The notes under the pieces: generated by a model
The model's input: only the letters and a program-made list of their open reading frames with translations
The model's database searches: none
What the model was told of the DNA's origin: nothing
Translations under genes and position numbers: made by a program
Part shown: positions 1 through 7,646 of the stretch, piece by piece
Layout: the number at the start of each line of letters is the position of its first letter
Position numbering within the stretch: position 1 is the stretch's first letter
IMG/VR virus record: IMGVR_UViG_2778261463_000007
Location: 1-7,646 of that record
Strand: one strand, 5' to 3'
Origin: a virus
Lineage: Duplodnaviria; Heunggongvirae; Uroviricota; Caudoviricetes
DNA: 7,646 nt

Positions 1-43
1 ACCGGAATTGAAGTGGTGGCCTGATGGTTACAACTAAACTGTT

Positions 44-63
44 CTGCCGACTGAGGTAAGTCG
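44..63 (-). other. 7-bp perfect inverted repeat (GCCGACT / AGTCGGC) with 6-nt loop, immediately 3' of the tRNA-like element on the minus strand; function unknown
   Basis: Read directly: plus strand gccgact-gaggta-agtcggc. No U-tract follows on either strand, so not a canonical intrinsic terminator. Confidence 0.3.
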
Positions 64-67
64 GCGC

Positions 68-144
68 TGGACCGCCAGCGGGGAATCGAACCTAGCGCAC
101 TCAACTTAAAGGGTTGACGCTCTTTCCTGATGAGCTAGTAGCGG
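68..144 (-). tRNA. Atypical tRNA-like element (possible pseudo-tRNA); anticodon triplet by position is TTT, identity uncertain
   Basis: Minus-strand read CCGCTAC-TA-GCTC-ATCAGGAAA-GAGC-G-TCAAC-CCTTTAA-GTTGA-GTGCG-CTAGG-TTCGATT-CCCCG-CTGGCGG-T-CCA. Conserved U8, A14, G18G19, canonical T-loop TTCGATT, 5-bp anticodon stem and 6/7 acceptor pairs are present. Position 33 is C instead of the near-universal U, and the T-stem has two mismatches. Starts 1 nt after the CCA of the neighbouring tRNA. Confidence 0.45.
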
Positions 145-145
145 T

Positions 146-221
146 TGGTGGCCCTTGCTGAATTTGAACCAGCGCCCTTGCGATTATGAGTCGCTCGCTC
201 TCACCACTGAGCTAAAGGGCC
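146..221 (-). tRNA. tRNA with anticodon CAT, tRNA-Ile2-like (lysidine type; anticodon-based tools would label it Met); resembles E. coli ileX and the ileZ of Stx-type phages
   Basis: Reverse complement gives GGCCCTTTAGCTCAGTGGTGAGAGCGAGCGACTCATAATCGCAAGGGCGCTGGTTCAAATTCAGCAAGGGCCACCA: 7-bp acceptor stem, D-arm GCTC/GAGC, anticodon loop CTCATAA, T-arm GCTGG-TTCAAAT-TCAGC, encoded CCA. The anticodon arm CGACTCATAATCG matches my recollection of E. coli ileX rather than elongator or initiator tRNA-Met. Confidence 0.8.
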
Positions 222-353
222 TCGAGCAGCATAATAACGTTACGGGATTAATACCGCAAATCTCAGAGAAAGCCCGACAAACCCAACTAAGCGCACCTCT
301 TATCTGGTCCGCCAAAGAGCTTAATGTCCGGTGCAGATTTTCGATGTAAAAAA

Positions 354-371
354 CCGCCTGGCTGCGGGTTT
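354..371 (-). terminator. Weak candidate intrinsic terminator (4-bp GC stem CCGC/GCGG, 6-nt loop, followed by U6 on the minus-strand RNA)
   Basis: Plus strand aaaaaa-ccgc-ctggct-gcgg-gttt; on the minus strand the hairpin is followed by six T. The stem is short, so stability is marginal. Confidence 0.25.
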
Positions 372-694
372 AAGTTGTGTGGCGTAGGAACCACTCTTAC
401 CATGATATGCATACTTTTACGATCGTAAAGTGTTTGTTCATACCCTGCATGCTGCATGATTCACCCCACAGACAATCTCTGGATTGTTGCGACGTTTGGC
501 AAGATACAATTAAAGATTATGCATTCTTCTATGCACGTATTTTTCTTCAAAAGTAATGTCTTTATTAAGGTTATATAAATAACTCATAAACCCAAATAAT
601 TAAATATATTTAGCACTTCTAATAAAAAAGATTGATCTTAATTTTCTGAGTGAAAGATAGCCATCTATTTATTAGTTTGCATGACTTCTTATTT

Positions 695-710
695 TGTGAT
701 AGTGATCACA
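695..710. promoter_or_regulatory. Perfect match to both half-sites of the CRP consensus TGTGA-N6-TCACA, upstream of the porin gene
   Basis: Read directly: tgtga-tagtga-tcaca at 695-710, about 110 bp upstream of the porin ATG at 820. Confidence 0.4.
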
Positions 711-738
711 TATAAAGAATCGGACTCCTTAATTTTCC

Positions 739-767
739 TTGTATACATTATACACAGAAATTAAATT
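739..767 (+). promoter_or_regulatory. Candidate sigma70 promoter for the porin gene (-35 TTGTAT, 17-bp spacer, -10 TAAATT)
   Basis: Hexamers read by eye with canonical spacing; each is a 4/6 match to consensus. Shine-Dalgarno GAGGA at 809-813 lies 6 nt before the ATG. If the start site is near 775, the CRP site would be centred near -72.5. Confidence 0.3.
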
Positions 768-819
768 TTCATCCTGATAGCATTTTGTCGTCCAATTAAC
801 TCCCACCAGAGGATAAAAA

Positions 820-1926
820 ATGAAAAATTTAACAGTGGCACTTTCTGCTGTAGCAGCATCAGTATTTCTGGCAACGTCTTCAAATGCAGCAGAAATATAC
901 AATAAAGATGCAAACAAAGTGGATTTATACGGTAAAGCAGTTGGTTTACATTATTTTTCTTCTGATAAGGACCAAAACGGAGATCAGACTTACGCACGCC
1001 TTGGATTCAGAGGTGAAACCCAAATAAATAATTATATTACTGGTTTTGGTCAGTGGGAATATAATTTCCAGGGGAACAACCCTGAAGGGGATGGAGCTCA
1101 AACTGGAAACAAGACTCGCCTGGCATACGCTGGTCTGAAGCTTGCAGATGCTGGCTCTCTTGATTATGGTCGTAACTACGGCGTGGTGTACGACGCATTA
1201 AGCTACACTGACGTCTTCCCGGAGTTTGGACCTACCGCAGCGCAAAAGGATAACTTCTTCGTTGGTCGTGTAGGCGGTGTTGCCACATACCGCAACACTG
1301 ACTTTTTTGGACTGGTCGATGGGCTTAGCTTTGCAATTCAGTATCTGGGAAAAAATGAACGCAAGGATAAACCAGATACTTCAAACGGAGAGGGTGTAGG
1401 TGGCTCTGTCAGCTATGAATATGAAGGATTTGGTTTTGTCGCAGCATACGGCGCTGCTGATCGTACTAAAAATCAGAAAAAGGCTGAGCTTGGTAAAGGG
1501 AAAAAAGCTGAACAGTGGGCCACCGGGGTAAAATATGACGCAAATAATCTGTACCTGGCTGCCAGTTATGGTGAAACAAATAATACCCGTGCAATATCGT
1601 ATGGTGATAATATTTCAGGAGTGGCGAATAAAACCGAAGATTTCACTGTTGTGGCACAATACCAGTTCGACTTTGGATTACGCCCGTCTCTTGCTTATAC
1701 CCACTCTAAAGCAAAAAACCTTTCATCCAGTACTGATATTAGTAAAAAACATGATGACGGATATATTGAAAAATTCGTTGAAGTAGGGGCTTCTTATTAC
1801 TTCAACAAAAATATGTCTACATACATAGATTACAAAATCAATATGCTCGATAAAAATAAATTCACTGAAAGAACAGGAGTATCAACCGACGATATTGTCG
1901 CTGTTGGTCTGGTTTATCAGTTCTGA
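820..1926 (+). CDS. General porin of the OmpC/OmpF/NmpC family (prophage-borne, NmpC/Lc-like), 368 aa, with N-terminal signal peptide
   Basis: Signal peptide [23 protein letters not shown] followed by mature N-terminus [16 protein letters not shown] typical of enterobacterial porins; PEFG loop-3 motif; C-terminus [24 protein letters not shown]...[16 protein letters not shown] ending in Phe. Strong RBS. Gene is markedly more AT-rich than the flanking phage genes. Confidence 0.95.
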
Positions 1927-1971
1927 TTTATTCTGTAAGAATATGCCGGGGGAGTGAGAACTTTTCTGGCA

Positions 1972-2000
1972 TATAAAGTGGTGCCCTCATGCCACTGCAA
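1972..2000 (-). promoter_or_regulatory. Candidate late promoter (pR'-like) downstream of Q: -35 TTGCAG, 17-bp spacer, -10 TTTATA on the minus strand
   Basis: Position matches where lambdoid Q proteins act (promoter and qut site just downstream of the Q gene); hexamers read by eye only. Confidence 0.2.
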
Positions 2001-2070
2001 AACGTTGGACAGTACTTAACTTTTCCAACGAACTTTCTGTTATTTATTAACCTTTTTGGTTTTTATACTT

Positions 2071-2097
2071 GGGCGCTTTGCGCCCATTTTTTATTTT
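2071..2097 (+). terminator. Rho-independent terminator for the porin transcript (GGGCGC-TTT-GCGCCC then A-TTTTTTATTTT)
   Basis: Perfect 6-bp GC-rich stem, 3-nt loop and a T-rich tract on the plus strand. On the minus strand no U-tract follows, so it should not terminate Q-gene transcripts. Confidence 0.7.
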
Positions 2098-2104
2098 GTA
2101 CGCC

Positions 2105-2527
2105 TTATATCCCTGCCCTAGAGGACGCAGTTTTACGACGTATCGAATAATTTGTGCTCACATATCGATCCATCTCAAGGCGAACATCTAGCATCATCAA
2201 CATACCATCAACCACTCCTTCAGCTTTTTGCAAACGCTTTCCAATATGCGTATCCGAACATCCATGTTTCATTGCTAACTTCATGAACGTCATCCCATAT
2301 ACGTAGTAATCAACCAGCATGTCATGCATATCGGCGTTGTTCTTTTTCAGGCGAGCCATACAACCACATATAATCATCGCGTCATCATCGGAACACTGCG
2401 ATCGCGATTTTACTTTTGACGGTATCAGCCCCTTAAATCCGGCGGCAATGCCTGACCATTCCACGTCTTCATGATTATTTGCGACCCATGCCCCCCAACG
2501 TTCAAGAACCATTTGAATATCACGCAT
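2105..2527 (-). CDS. Q: Late-gene antitermination protein Q (QuuD-like family)
   Basis: Translation [62 protein letters not shown]... closely resembles my recollection of E. coli DLP12 QuuD. Start placed at the ATG preceded by GGAG 8 nt upstream; the ORF track extends to a TTG at 2542. Sits last before the late region, as Q does. Confidence 0.9.
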
Positions 2528-2544
2528 CAACTTTCTCCACAAAA

Positions 2545-3540
2545 TCAGGCCAGCACACCAGTTGCCAGCGCACGATCGATAAAACGAAATATCAGCTCCA
2601 GCTGGGAGCCATACTTCACTTCAAATGCCACGGTATCCGCATGCAGCTCGTCGTGATGCTTTCTGCACAAAGGCAACACAAAGAGGTCATGCGCTTTTGT
2701 ACCCATTCCCCCCTGACCGTGACCTATCAGGTGGTGGGGATCATCAGCAGGCTTTCCACAACATGCACACGGCTGTGTCTTAACCCAGCGCGTGTACTTT
2801 TCATTAACCCAGCGGCGACGTTTTGGGCGTAACATAAAAGACTCCGGCGACTCCGGATCCACTTTCAGCGCCAGCACCTTTTTCGCTTTATCCTGGATAA
2901 TGCTGGTGGCAGGAACCGAAGGAACAAGGTCACTCTCCCGGGTGACAGACGGCACAACAGGATTCGGTAATCTCAGTGCCTTACGGGCTGCACTTTCCGG
3001 TAAGGTATCCGCCAGGTCATTACGAACCAGCCACCAGCACAGTTCCGGCATTGTCACAACATGACTATCATCAAAACCGAGATCCCGACGCACGACAGAC
3101 AACACCCAGCGAGCACAGTTATCCGTTGCCATTGATTCCAGCCGTTCCGTGAACTGATCGCACAGCTGGTTATCGCAGTGCCAGCACAGACGGATTGCAC
3201 CCGGAGCGTGTCGCATTGTGGTCATGTTCTCGCTGTGCCAGTCGGAATGAGGCCACTGGCAGCCTTTTTCACGAAGTAACCAGCTTTCAAGACATTCCAC
3301 TCCACCAGCACGACGGATTACTGCCTCATTGCGGAACACGGCCCGAACGGCAGGATCATCCGCCAGCGGTTGTGATGCCGCCGGAACGGCACCGCTGGCG
3401 AAAGATGAATAACGTTCCGGCTCAGGCTCCAGCAGGACACGCCCCTGCATAAACAGGGGCATCAGCTCTGAACCTGGCCTGAACAATACGATCCCCATAC
3501 GCGGGGCAATTTCAGGGGTCAGTAGTGCTCTCACGGTCAC
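2545..3540 (-). CDS. Cys/His-rich nin-region protein, likely DUF968 family (YdfU-like), with a C-terminal HNH-nuclease-like motif
   Basis: 331-aa ORF immediately upstream of Q. C-terminal segment [43 protein letters not shown] fits an HNH-type zinc-binding pattern; a second Cys/His cluster (CQWPHSDWH...CWHCDNQLC) lies in the middle. GTG start at 3540 or the in-frame GTG at 3534, with GAGG upstream. Confidence 0.85.
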
Positions 3541-3585: not shown

Positions 3586-3843
3586 TCACGCAGTAAACTC
3601 CTTCACCAGAGTTTCAAACTGGCTTACCTTGCCTTCCAGTTCCGCCACGCAATCCACCAGCTCATCCACCGCCTTTTGTGTGCGGTGTTTTGCCTGCAGC
3701 AGATCACGAAGCGCCGGAGTAAGCTGCTTGCGGAGCGTATCCTTTGCCACGCTCATTTTTTCCATCTGTTCAGCACAACGAAGCATCTCCTGCGCCTGGC
3801 GACGAAGTTGTTCCGGTGAAACAGTGGCTGTTCTGTTATTCAA
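3586..3843 (-). CDS. Hypothetical 85-aa protein, predicted helical/coiled-coil, unknown function
   Basis: ORF with TTG start overlapping the DnaB-like stop (TTGA overlap) and GGAG upstream. Sequence is heptad-like and rich in charged residues and Leu. I recognise no family. Confidence 0.6.
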   Translation of the reverse strand: MNNRTATVSPEQLRRQAQEMLRCAEQMEKMSVAKDTLRKQLTPALRDLLQAKHRTQKAVDELVDCVAELEGKVSQFETLVKEFTA

Positions 3844-5240
3844 AATAAACGCTCCGCTTTACTGCCCGACATGCGGTTATTGCTGTATCTGCGCGGATTG
3901 CCCGGCGTCATGGGTGTGGAAAGAACCTGAGCGCTTTCCTGATCCACAGGCAGAAAATGCCCGTTATGAAAACGCCGGTAAATGGTCCCGAGAGTGCCAT
4001 TACGCTGTTTCGTGATGTTGATTTCTGCTATGCCTCTGGCCTGTGTATCCGGGTTATACACCTCATCCCTGTAAAGCATCAGAATGATGTCGGCATCCGC
4101 CTCTATTTCCCCGGAATTTTTCAGATCCGAGTTCATGGGGCGTTTATTGGGTCTGGATTCCACACCACGGGAGAGCTGACTCAGTGCAATCAGCGGGAAA
4201 CCGCCGGATTTTGCCAGACTTTTAAGTCCCTTTGAGATTTCCCCCACAGCAAGGTCGTGACGCCCCGTGCTGCGGGTTTTAATCAGACCGAGGTAATCAA
4301 CCACCACCAGCGCCGTTTCCGGATGCTTCATCCGGTGGTACCTCGTGGTTGCACATATCTCATCAATGGTCAGATTTGCCTGGTCCACCATCCAGATATT
4401 ACGCCCCGTCATTCGTCCCACACCCTGTGAGAAACGTGCCCAGTCTTCGTCTTCAAAACGGGCAGCAGACTTAAGACGGGATACCGGCATTCCACCGGCA
4501 GAAGACACCATACGTTCACCAATCTGGATGTTCGCCATCTCCATGGTGAACAGAAGCACGCCATGCCCCTGCTCAGTCACCTTGTCGATGATGTCCAGCG
4601 CCAGTTCGGTTTTCCCCATCGAAGGACGAGCCGCAATGAATACCAGGTCGCCTGGCTCCATACCCCCTGTTTTTGCGTCCAGTTCATCAATACCGGTCAT
4701 CAGCGTTCTGGATTTCTCCAGTCCCTGATTCCGGCATTCAACACGGCCCACCACTTCCGGAAGGACATCATCAATGTGAACCGGCTGAATGACGCCCTTT
4801 CCGGTCGACAGTGAGGCCATCATGTTCTGCGCATCCTTCAGGGCATCCTCGGCTGCTTCGCAGGTATGTGCATCCCGTAAATTCTGTAATGCTTCGGTCA
4901 GTGTTTTTTCTGCATCGCGCAGTACGGCATTTCGCCGCAGCGCTGCAACATAGTGTTCCAGTGAAGACTTCACCCAGGTTTTGCGCCCGGTGTCGGTAAT
5001 CACCGGGGCAAGTTCCGGCATCTCATTGCACAGCAGCACGGGGTCAATGACGCCGGATACGCGGGCCTGTCTGCAAATCCCCGCGTAAATATCCCGGTAC
5101 TGACGCACGAAAAATACATCCGCCGGAAGCGTGGCCAGAATATCCATCACTTCCGGATCTGCCCCACGCAGAAAAAACGCGCCAATCACCGCACCTTCCA
5201 GGTCATCGTTACGCCATGCCGGGGTGTTCTGGCTGGTCAT
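3840..5240 (-). CDS. dnaB: DnaB-family replicative DNA helicase (phage-encoded, P22 gene 12-like)
   Basis: 466 aa; Walker A ARPSMGKTELALD, Walker B-like LVVVDYLGL, DnaB motif IALSQLSRGVESRPNKRP, DnaB-like N-terminal domain. ATG overlaps the stop of the upstream gene (ATGA) and is preceded by GGAGGTG. Confidence 0.95.
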   Translation of the reverse strand: MTSQNTPAWRNDDLEGAVIGAFFLRGADPEVMDILATLPADVFFVRQYRDIYAGICRQARVSGVIDPVLLCNEMPELAPVITDTGRKTWVKSSLEHYVAALRRNAVLRDAEKTLTEALQNLRDAHTCEAAEDALKDAQNMMASLSTGKGVIQPVHIDDVLPEVVGRVECRNQGLEKSRTLMTGIDELDAKTGGMEPGDLVFIAARPSMGKTELALDIIDKVTEQGHGVLLFTMEMANIQIGERMVSSAGGMPVSRLKSAARFEDEDWARFSQGVGRMTGRNIWMVDQANLTIDEICATTRYHRMKHPETALVVVDYLGLIKTRSTGRHDLAVGEISKGLKSLAKSGGFPLIALSQLSRGVESRPNKRPMNSDLKNSGEIEADADIILMLYRDEVYNPDTQARGIAEINITKQRNGTLGTIYRRFHNGHFLPVDQESAQVLSTPMTPGNPRRYSNNRMSGSKAERLF

Positions 5241-6124
5241 GCGGCAACACCTCCGATACGAGAACGGTAGCTGGGCCAGTTAAACGACAACCAGTTGCGC
5301 CCGCCATCGGTGATCCTGTCGGCAATCCGGGGACTGATGAACGCCCACAATTCTTCCGGTGAAAGGTTGCTGATCAAGATAGTTGGCAAAATACCCTCAT
5401 ACCGGGCATTGATAATTTCCTGCAAAATGGCCATTTCAGCCGCACTGCCAAACTGAACGCCGACTTCGTCGATGATCAGCAAATCCAGTGACGCATAATG
5501 CTCAATGACGTCATCCGCTGTTTTTTCACTGTCATTCCGCCAGCAGTTTTTCACAGCACGGGTAAGGCGCATCACGTCGGTGATCTCCACACTGGCCAGA
5601 TAGTTACGGATGATGTGTTTTGCCATTGATACCGCCAGATGATTTTTCCCGGTACCGCAACTGCCGGTCATAACAAGACTGGTACCGTTCTCCAGCATAT
5701 CTGGCCAGTTCTCCGCATAGCGGCGACAGGCCGCAAGATTTCTGGCTGCGTCAGGATTAACCTCCAGATAATTATCAAACTCGCAGTCCCGAAAACGCAG
5801 AGCAATTCCGGCGTTATCAGTCAGTTCTTCCGCCTTGAGGGACGACAGCTCCATGGTCAAATCGTTGGCCTCAGCTATCAAGCAGTCAGGGCAGCATGAA
5901 ATTTTTTCTCTATCCTCGCCATTACGATCGCTCCACACCAGAATATGTGTGTGGTATTCGCCATGTTTTTCGCAACACCCGCGCCCTTCACGCATCCAGC
6001 AGGATCGATAAGGCCATGGCTTTTCGCCATTCTGAGCAAATGCAATCTCTGCCCGTAACTCATCCATCCGCGCCTGTAGTCTTGTTTGTTGTTCACGCAG
6101 GTTAAGTGTCATCATCGCTGTCAC
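5237..6124 (-). CDS. dnaC: DnaC/IstB-like AAA+ helicase loader with an unusual N-terminal Cys-rich region
   Basis: Walker A GSCGTGKNHLA and Walker B LLIIDEVG in the C-terminal ~190 aa. The ORF track start at 6124 is GTG; a more likely start is the ATG at 6115 with GAGG 8 nt upstream. N-terminal ~90 aa contains CWMREGRGCCEKHGEYHTH...SCCPDC. Confidence 0.9.
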   Translation of the reverse strand: MTAMMTLNLREQQTRLQARMDELRAEIAFAQNGEKPWPYRSCWMREGRGCCEKHGEYHTHILVWSDRNGEDREKISCCPDCLIAEANDLTMELSSLKAEELTDNAGIALRFRDCEFDNYLEVNPDAARNLAACRRYAENWPDMLENGTSLVMTGSCGTGKNHLAVSMAKHIIRNYLASVEITDVMRLTRAVKNCWRNDSEKTADDVIEHYASLDLLIIDEVGVQFGSAAEMAILQEIINARYEGILPTILISNLSPEELWAFISPRIADRITDGGRNWLSFNWPSYRSRIGGVAA

Positions 6125-6125
6125 C

Positions 6126-7118
6126 TCAGAATGTCAATTTGTCACTGGATTTACCGAATTTGTCAGACATGGCTCCCAGGCCAGCCAGGACATCGACCTG
6201 TCGCTGTCGCCCACCTCCGGGAGCGGCTGGCTGTTGCCAGGATTCGTCAAAGTGCCGATCGGGGCCAAAGAACGTCGACGCCTGCTTCACGAACTGTGTG
6301 CCGGTATTTCCTGTAGCACGTACCCAGGCGGCATAACGTCTCACACCATCAAGCATGGTCTCCGGTTTTATTCCCTCCCTGAGACGGGCTTTCCAGGCTT
6401 TGAAGGCTGCTGACTTGGAATTGCCACCAGCACGTTTGGGATATTCCTGCCAGACCTGTTCAAATTCCGGTGAATATTCCTGTCGGGCGGAACGCGCTGG
6501 TGCAGACGCGTCAGCGGATGCGCCAATAGTGTTTTTAGTCTCCGTTGTAATCTCTGTAGTAATCTCTGTATTTGTATCAACATTCGGCGTATCCCCTGTT
6601 CCGTTATGACGTTGGGGGGTGTTCCGTTTTAACGTAATAGCTGTGTCGCTGATTGCGTTATTGCTGTTACTTTCTGGCGAAACAGAAGAAGGTGTGGTAA
6701 TGGCAGCAACTGCCTGTGGGTTGATCCCGACAAACAAAATATTGCTGCATTTCACACCATCGAGCATTTCTACGGTGCGTAAATCCAGAGTAATAAACCC
6801 TGCATCGCGAAGACGCTTCAGCGCATCTGCGGTTTCCCTTTTCCCGAAGCCAAATTGCTCAGCAAACGCCTGATAGCTTCTTTGCAGTTTGTCACCCTGA
6901 AAACGCTTGCGATATCCCAGCAAAGCCCCGGTATGCTCATCCCGGAGTTCTGTCGGGCGGTACCAGTAAACAATTTCTGAAAGCAAGGCGATAGCAGTCG
7001 CATCCGGACGACCACTGGGTAGCCGAATATGTTTCCACCAGTTCGCGGGGGTGACATTGCCGGAAATATTAATTTGACCAATAGCCATAACTTCCGGTGT
7101 AGGTGCGTAACGACTCAC
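6126..7118 (-). CDS. O: Replication initiator, lambda O-like (replisome organiser)
   Basis: 330 aa; N-terminal domain resembles initiator/replisome-organiser proteins of lambdoid phages; low-complexity linker with TEITTEITTE repeats; conserved-looking C-terminal domain. GTG start preceded by GGGAGGTG, overlapping the upstream stop. Position immediately before the helicase loader and helicase. Confidence 0.9.
   Translation of the reverse strand: MSRYAPTPEVMAIGQINISGNVTPANWWKHIRLPSGRPDATAIALLSEIVYWYRPTELRDEHTGALLGYRKRFQGDKLQRSYQAFAEQFGFGKRETADALKRLRDAGFITLDLRTVEMLDGVKCSNILFVGINPQAVAAITTPSSVSPESNSNNAISDTAITLKRNTPQRHNGTGDTPNVDTNTEITTEITTETKNTIGASADASAPARSARQEYSPEFEQVWQEYPKRAGGNSKSAAFKAWKARLREGIKPETMLDGVRRYAAWVRATGNTGTQFVKQASTFFGPDRHFDESWQQPAAPGGGRQRQVDVLAGLGAMSDKFGKSSDKLTF
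6541..6660. repeat. Direct repeats inside the O-like gene: candidate iteron-type replication origin
   Basis: Tandem GTAATCTCTGTA x2 at 6547-6570; TGTTCCGTTATGACG at 6597-6611 and TGTTCCGTTTTAACG at 6620-6634 (13/15 identical, 23 bp apart); further TTGCGTTA/TTGCTGTTA-like repeats to about 6680. Confidence 0.45.
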
Positions 7119-7339: not shown

Positions 7340-7527
7340 GGACGCACCTCCGCCGTAGTTACGTATTTAACCGGGCTACCTTTCATTGAGATGGTTTCAC
7401 ACATCTCTGCCGCTTTCAGTTCTGCCGTTTTTCTGGATTTATAGCGACGGTGCCAGACAGATACATCCGTGCTAACTGATACATCGTTCTGAGAGATCCC
7501 CTCATAATTTCCCCAAAGCGTAACCAT
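7336..7527 (-). CDS. Hypothetical 63-aa protein (uncertain gene call)
   Basis: ORF whose stop overlaps the start of the 74-aa gene (ATGA), but no convincing Shine-Dalgarno precedes its ATG, and an alternative frame is open to the window edge. Confidence 0.35.
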   Translation of the reverse strand: MVTLWGNYEGISQNDVSVSTDVSVWHRRYKSRKTAELKAAEMCETISMKGSPVKYVTTAEVRP

Positions 7528-7646
7528 GTGTGAATAAATTTTGAGCTAGTAGGGTTGCAGCCACGAGTAAGTCTTCCCTTGTTATTGTGTAGCCAGAATG
7601 CCGCAAAACTTCCATGCCTAAGCGAACTGTTGAGAGTACGTTTCGA

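Follow-up and report, generated by a model that had tools for sequence, protein, structure and literature searches.

A probable prophage tRNA-Ile2 gene of the ileZ family at the head of a decaying tRNA array

Described tRNA arrays and the prophage setting

Transfer RNA genes occur downstream of the antiterminator gene Q in lambdoid phages, where the rationale put forward is the supply of tRNAs for codons that the phage overuses, and the same source already documents an ileX-like tRNA gene beside stx2, citing Schmidt et al. 1997 (PMC3636060). A prophage ileZ-type tRNA-Ile2 gene is an already known kind of element. In the Stx2a phage F723 an array of ileZ, argN and argO lies between Q and stx2, the three names resting on the GenBank annotation of AP012533.1. 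A second type of array, with the order Ile2-Lys-Thr-Gly, is present in Escherichia phage PhiR47_1, in Escherichia coli AVS0947 and ECMA0423, and in Shigella flexneri SFBU1023. [quoted passage not shown] A layout of Q followed by an antisense porin gene, as found here, is known from quuD-nmpC of DLP12, and a prophage of strain CE10 has the order Q, porin, tRNA-Ile, tRNA-Arg.

The stretch of DNA analysed here (the window, 7,646 nucleotides in full) represents, on its minus strand, the rightward early-to-late junction of a lambdoid prophage (Table 1). As stated by the initial annotation, the CAT tRNA gene is downstream of Q, which lies on the same strand at a distance of 1.9 kb with the antisense porin gene in between; the lysis genes are outside the window. 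Across 98% of its length the window shares 99.9% identity with a prophage in E. coli LH50-c (NZ_CP100500.1, about 2,340,600-2,387,900) that is integrated at yecE, with yecE on the integrase side, and that has the gene order Q, antisense porin, tRNA-Ile, tRNA-Lys, lysozyme, Rz, terminase, and head and tail genes. No stx gene was found in the LH50-c prophage. Its major capsid gene is frameshifted, a hypothetical-protein pseudogene, incomplete (truncated), lies immediately 5' of the lysozyme gene, and the right border, opposite the yecE side, carries a truncated ompW. This prophage looks rearranged or hybrid and is probably defective.

Table 1 Features of the window and the evidence for each
Feature	Coordinates	Strand	Evidence
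tRNA-Thr(UGU) pseudogene, 5' 65 nt, running past the left window edge	1..65	-	Rfam, thrU alignment
'Lys' tRNA gene, anticodon TTT, argN-derived, eroded	68..144	-	ARAGORN; Rfam 31.2 bits
tRNA-Ile2 gene (ileZ family), anticodon CAT, CCA encoded	146..221	-	ARAGORN, Rfam, ileZ homology
Putative sigma-70 promoter of the tRNA array	231..259	-	Conservation in 12 arrays
OmpC/NmpC-type porin, 368 aa, complete, prophage cargo	820..1926	+	Pfam Porin_1, 419 bits
Q-family late-gene antiterminator	2105..2542	-	Pfam PF06530 Phage_antitermQ, 178 bits; PGAP 'antiterminator Q family protein'
DUF968/HNH-like gene	3540..2545	-	
DnaB helicase gene	5240..3840	-	
DnaC-like ATPase gene	6124..5237	-	
O-like gene	7118..6126	-	

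Several further observations were made on the surroundings of the array. The porin gene is intact in the window, and its annotation in LH50-c, the complete genome nearest to the window, is that of a pseudogene interrupted by an internal stop; the window therefore comes from a strain other than LH50-c. The last 155 nt of the window (7492..7646) have no match in LH50-c and mark a mosaic junction in the early region, and an A+T-rich region (about 480..820) lies upstream of the porin gene. The porin 3' UTR (1922..2096, plus strand) matches the full length of the GcvB sRNA model at a sub-threshold score (36.2 bits, E about 1e-6; gathering score 42), ends in a strong terminator at 2070..2096, and contains blocks homologous to the sequence 3' of nmpC in DLP12. 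The sRNA IpeX was described at that position in DLP12, and the porin 3' UTR may, judging from these sequence matches, encode an IpeX-like 3'-UTR sRNA.

Isotype of the CAT tRNA

Two tRNA genes were called in the window by ARAGORN, both on the minus strand: the 76-nt tRNA studied here, with its CAT anticodon at position 34, and its TTT neighbour. With the Rfam tRNA model, 149..221 gives a match of 67.8 bits (E 1.5e-13; gathering score 29) that spans the whole model, and the cloverleaf is canonical, the sole non-standard pair being 27-43. A tRNA gene at this position is far above chance expectation. The borders given for it by the initial annotation agree exactly with those obtained with ARAGORN and Rfam, to which we add the strand. 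An Rfam hit to 'Plastid-ycf2' on the opposite strand, scoring 29 bits where the gathering score is 65.7, was discarded as an artefact of tRNA-like sequence. Unconstrained minimum free energy folding was uninformative for tRNA function, returning non-cloverleaf structures even for canonical ileZ and intact thrU, and the stabilities reported below were computed as constrained cloverleaf energies.

The closest annotated relative of the CAT tRNA is ileZ of the Stx2a phage F723 (AP012533.1), to which it is identical at 73 of 76 positions (96.1%), and the CAT tRNAs of PhiR47_1 and AVS0947 are likewise identical to it at 73/76. Identity is 68/76 (89.5%) to K-12 ileY and 66/76 (86.8%) to K-12 ileX, versus 50/77 (64.9%) to the elongator genes metT/metU and 45/77 (58.4%) to the initiator gene metV. 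The positions read by the relevant enzymes follow the same division. In E. coli, TilS recognises C4-G69 and C5-G68 as positive determinants, and the U4-A69 and A5-U68 pairs of tRNA-Met serve both as MetRS determinants and as negative determinants for TilS (PMC2500205, PMC12514573, PMC9976931); the CAT tRNA has both of the positive pairs, C4-G69 and C5-G68, in the place of the two methionine pairs. The bacterial IleRS identity set (A73, C4-G69, U12-A23, C29-G41, A35, U36, A37 and A38; PMC9976931 Table 1) is complete, the anticodon loop being CUCAUAA. The D loop reads AGUGGUGA, compared with AGUGGUUA in ileX, and the IleRS D-loop elements G16, U20 and U21, being defined on tRNA-Ile1, have no clean mapping onto this tRNA. 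TmcA, which acetylates tRNA-Met, requires C27-G43, C30-G40 and G44 (PMC2500205), and these determinants were not found in the CAT tRNA, which has A27·A43, G30-C40 and A44 instead. PGAP runs tRNAscan-SE 2.0 with dedicated covariance models for Ile2, Met and fMet (PMC8450103). Four genomes contain exactly this 76-nt sequence, and in each of them PGAP gives it as tRNA-Ile, so the isotype call, seen through these PGAP labels, is isoleucine and not Met.

Two other identities have been considered for this gene. An elongator tRNA-Met would agree with the CAT anticodon and with the name printed by ARAGORN; several deposited phage records also give the ileZ homologue as tRNA-Met, as does published work (PMC7946995). 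These labels derive from the anticodon alone, which is the only feature that ARAGORN uses in naming, and the low identity to metT, the two acceptor-stem pairs, the missing TmcA determinants and the PGAP label all speak against them, leaving this reading very improbable and effectively refuted. Alternatively, since tRNA genes are the integration sites of many prophages, the CAT gene could belong to the host chromosome or be what is left of a tRNA attachment site at the prophage border, and in related arrays Thr and Gly are indeed clearly host copies. The CAT gene is, however, inside the prophage, with Q on one side and the lysis genes on the other; the left border, about 16 kb distant, is at yecE and adjoins the integrase gene; the chromosome has ileX and ileY elsewhere, each with a different sequence; and the same gene is found in packaged Stx phage genomes. 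The annotated context thus refutes a host gene or attachment-site remnant, to which we give practically no credence. No evidence contradicts the Ile2 identity of the tRNA, which is settled by the sequence determinants, and the proposal of the initial annotation that it is a lysidine-type tRNA-Ile2 and not a tRNA-Met is upheld by its homology to ileZ, ileY and ileX, by the TilS and IleRS determinants, and by the lack of Met and TmcA determinants.

A rare allele, its decaying neighbours and a conserved promoter

Compared with canonical ileZ, the CAT tRNA carries the three substitutions C43A, U47G and C61U. The first replaces an A·C mismatch at 27-43 with an A·A mismatch, the second is a change in the variable loop, and the third converts the near-universal G53-C61 pair to G53·U61, at a loss of ~2.4 kcal/mol in computed cloverleaf stability. 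E. coli tRNA-Ile2 bears acp3U at position 47. In a pattern scan of species-representative genomes, which allowed either base at positions 43, 47 and 61, all seven matches (E. coli, E. albertii, S. flexneri, an Escherichia sp. and two metagenome bins) had the canonical ileZ sequence. An ileZ-type gene is present in 3,029 of 5,426 complete E. coli genomes, that is, in about half of them, and an extra AUA decoder is accordingly a very common prophage accessory. The canonical sequence predominates among about 2,775 E. coli records, and the exact A43/G47/U61 allele occurs in only four of the 5,426 genomes, all of them from chickens or chicken meat. The Rfam score is 72.5 bits for relatives and 67.8 bits for the present allele. 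The gene is a rare derived allele whose array is degenerating and whose prophage is partly defective, and because of this the tRNA may perform worse than canonical ileZ.

The neighbouring genes have fared less well. With 77.9% identity to argN(UCG) and 63.6% to K-12 lysT, the 'Lys' gene is closer to the former and is best regarded as an argN-family tRNA with an altered anticodon. It has C33 for the near-universal U33, U73 where lysine identity uses A73, a C7·C66 mismatch, and the T-stem mismatches U50·C64 and A51·C63; its position 20 is A. The C33 is common to the copies of PhiR47_1, AVS0947, ECMA0423 and S. flexneri, and the acceptor- and T-stem mismatches are extra defects of the window lineage, in which the Rfam score is 31.2 bits compared with 40.4 in PhiR47_1 and 53.2 in strain 8178. 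This argN-remodelled Lys(UUU) gene is more unusual than the Ile2 gene and may be of separate interest given current work on tRNA-cleaving defence. Next to it, the tRNA-Thr pseudogene was called by neither ARAGORN nor PGAP. Its full copy in the LH50-c prophage (L001 19428-19503) scores 19.8 bits with Rfam, below threshold, compared with 73.8 bits for the intact gene of PhiR47_1. It is 80.3% identical to K-12 thrU, with 15 substitutions, a broken D stem and a 3' end of CTA, not CCA. A tRNA-Gly gene, scoring 64.9 bits in intact relatives, is absent from the window lineage. In PhiR47_1 the Thr and Gly tRNAs are 100% identical to K-12 thrU and glyT, so these members of the related arrays were captured from the host chromosome. 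There is an erosion gradient across the array, with Ile2 near-intact, Lys damaged, Thr dead and Gly gone, which suggests that Ile2 is the array member retained longest. The locus can be viewed as a snapshot of a tRNA array in mid-decay, and adds little biologically.

Downstream of the tRNA arrays in related prophages (L005 3329-4444, L002 4194-4453) the sRNA STnc100 is repeated in tandem, in one to four copies (77-208 bits), and the Stx2a phage additionally carries the anti-stx2 sRNA AsxR; neither STnc100 nor AsxR was found within the window.

Upstream of the tRNA-Ile2 gene lies a putative promoter with a -35 element TTGCGG (259..254), a 17-nt spacer and a -10 element TATTAT (236..231), separated from tRNA position 1 by a 9-nt G+C-rich stretch. 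When related arrays were aligned, TTGC-N19-TATTAT was invariant in 12 of 12, and the spacer and the sequence farther upstream were variable. From this conservation we infer that the site is a sigma-70 promoter belonging to the array. The site was missed by a consensus promoter scanner, its -35 element matching only three of six positions. A promoter of its own would permit expression of the array in the lysogen independently of Q. Neither pR' nor tR' was located. A short G+C hairpin followed by T6, noted by eye at about 372..345 (minus strand) on the upstream side of the promoter, was rejected as tR' on account of its only four G-C pairs and its failure in the terminator scan. A candidate for pR' at 429..402 (minus strand) was likewise rejected, with just 9/12 consensus positions matched in a region poorer in such matches than shuffled sequence.

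Codon supply, other roles and comparison with known systems

The gene is, with high probability, a prophage-borne minor-isoleucine tRNA-Ile2 gene of the ileZ family, heading a small array between Q and the lysis genes. From its sequence and position we infer a course of events in which the array would be transcribed from its own TTGCGG-17-TATTAT promoter, 9 nt before the mature 5' end, with upstream read-through probably adding to this transcription. RNase P and 3' processing would liberate the 76-nt tRNA with its CAU anticodon, and host TilS, reading C4-G69 and C5-G68, would convert C34 to lysidine. With lysidine at this position the tRNA would be charged by IleRS instead of MetRS and would read AUA instead of AUG, and the extra gene copy could boost a scarce tRNA for ATA-rich prophage and cargo genes.

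Codons were counted over the genes annotated in the LH50-c prophage, which is nearly identical to that of the window. The flanking host genes contain 1.7 ATA per 1000 codons (3% of Ile codons), compared with 8.4 (14%) in the early genes, 7.4 (16%) in the late genes, and 20.6 (37%) in the cargo genes (porin, YadA-like adhesin, sigma-like and DinI). The E. coli genome-wide value is 4.9 per 1000 codons (PMC12514573), so that late genes are at ~1.5 times the genome mean, and prophage and cargo genes range from 1.5 to 4 times. The initial annotation had expected late genes or downstream cargo rich in ATA codons; these LH50-c counts agree in direction, and strongly so for the cargo, but the excess is modest in late genes and not specific to them. 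The codons ACA, GGA and AGA/AGG are likewise enriched in the LH50-c prophage, in agreement with the isoacceptors of related arrays. The lysine codon AAA is not enriched in late genes (29.4 versus 30.5 per 1000 in flanking host genes), and reaches 37.6 in early and 44.9 in cargo genes.

Two further explanations concern the usefulness of the gene and not its identity. The gene could be an ileZ descendant that is no longer useful, an early-stage pseudogene under relaxed selection in a defective prophage, like both of its neighbours. It does have three private substitutions in an otherwise invariant sequence, a T stem weakened by G53·U61 and an Rfam score reduced from 72.5 to 67.8 bits, and it stands beside genes in which the score has fallen from 40-53 to 31 bits (Lys) and from 73.8 to 19.8 bits (Thr) or which are missing (Gly), in a prophage that, in LH50-c, contains further pseudogenes. 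Yet no known determinant for TilS or IleRS has been lost and the CCA end is still encoded, A43 exchanges one mismatch for another, position 47 is in the variable loop and a G·U pair is tolerated, 67.8 bits is still a good score for a tRNA, the -10 element and the promoter spacing are preserved, and divergence is lower in the tRNA (3.9%) than in the sequence on either side of it (about 12-15%). Early decay of the gene is unlikely, though it deserves more weight than any other alternative considered here. A more distant prospect is that the main role of the gene is counter-defence, with the phage replacing a host tRNA cut by an immune nuclease, in place of codon supply. Phage tRNAs neutralise PARIS (Lys UUU, Thr UGU and Asn GUU), and P2-OLD is neutralised by Thr UGU, including the tRNA of the lambdoid phage 21 (PMC12409363, PMC12445682). 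Related arrays have the composition Ile2-Lys(UUU)-Thr(UGU)-Gly, their Lys(UUU) and Thr(UGU) members matching the main targets of the PARIS AriB and P2-OLD nucleases. The 'Lys' gene of the window departs from host lysT at positions 39-41, having G-U-U where host tRNA-Lys has U-C-A, and the site cut by AriB falls within these three positions. The anticodon stem of phage ileZ has 4 bp, compared with five pairs in host ileX and ileY. We know of no nuclease that targets tRNA-Ile2, however, and the Thr and Gly tRNAs of the related arrays, being 100% identical to host thrU and glyT, are without escape changes. Codon supply, moreover, already accounts for an Ile2 gene in ATA-enriched DNA, and counter-defence is improbable as the main role.

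In such arrays the Lys and Thr tRNAs may have a second, anti-nuclease role. Extended to ileZ-led arrays downstream of Q in general, the proposal that these would be counter-defence cassettes, instead of or besides supplying codons, is a long shot. Were it true, the fact that Ile2 heads every one of these arrays would point to an undiscovered immune nuclease that attacks host tRNA-Ile2, and the erosion of the array in the window would reflect selective pressure lost in a domesticated prophage.

With codon supply retained as the preferred role of the tRNA-Ile2 gene, its main value is one of annotation, phage CAT tRNAs being often mislabelled tRNA-Met by ARAGORN, in several GenBank records and in at least one paper. 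Its likeness to the host genes ileX and ileY covers length, the TilS determinants of the acceptor stem, the anticodon loop and the T-loop family, together with C29-G41, U12-A23 and A73. It differs from them in having an A·A in place of a G·U at 27-43, in G20a, G47 and G53·U61, and in being borne on a mobile element with a putative promoter of its own.

The initial annotation had likened the locus to the Stx-type ileZ-argN-argO array, and this comparison holds in part. That array is real, lying between Q and stx2 in F723, and its ileZ, besides the 73 of 76 identical nucleotides, has the same TTGC-N19-TATTAT upstream architecture as the window gene; in Stx2 phages as in the prophage of the window, the gene is downstream of Q, before the lysis and late genes, and first in its array. 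A43, G47 and U61, on the other hand, are private to the window allele, and the partners differ, with an argN-derived UUU tRNA and a dead tRNA-Thr in the window as opposed to argN(UCG) and argO(UCU) in the Stx array. The prophage of the window is without an stx operon and, unlike the Stx array, has an antisense porin gene inserted between Q and the tRNA genes. As argN(UCG), argO and stx were not found after tRNA-Ile2 in the window and the LH50-c prophage, the gene belongs to the ileZ family and not to the Stx-type three-gene array. The Ile2-Lys-Thr-Gly arrays agree with the window in their first two genes and in the order and spacing of these, and their Lys genes are 90.9% identical to that of the window, the unusual C33 included; they differ in that Thr and Gly are intact and 100% identical to thrU and glyT, compared with a dead Thr (15 substitutions) and no Gly in the window. 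The only additions of this locus to the known ileZ-type elements are a rare, slightly damaged allele at the head of a decaying array and a conserved, putative promoter upstream of it.
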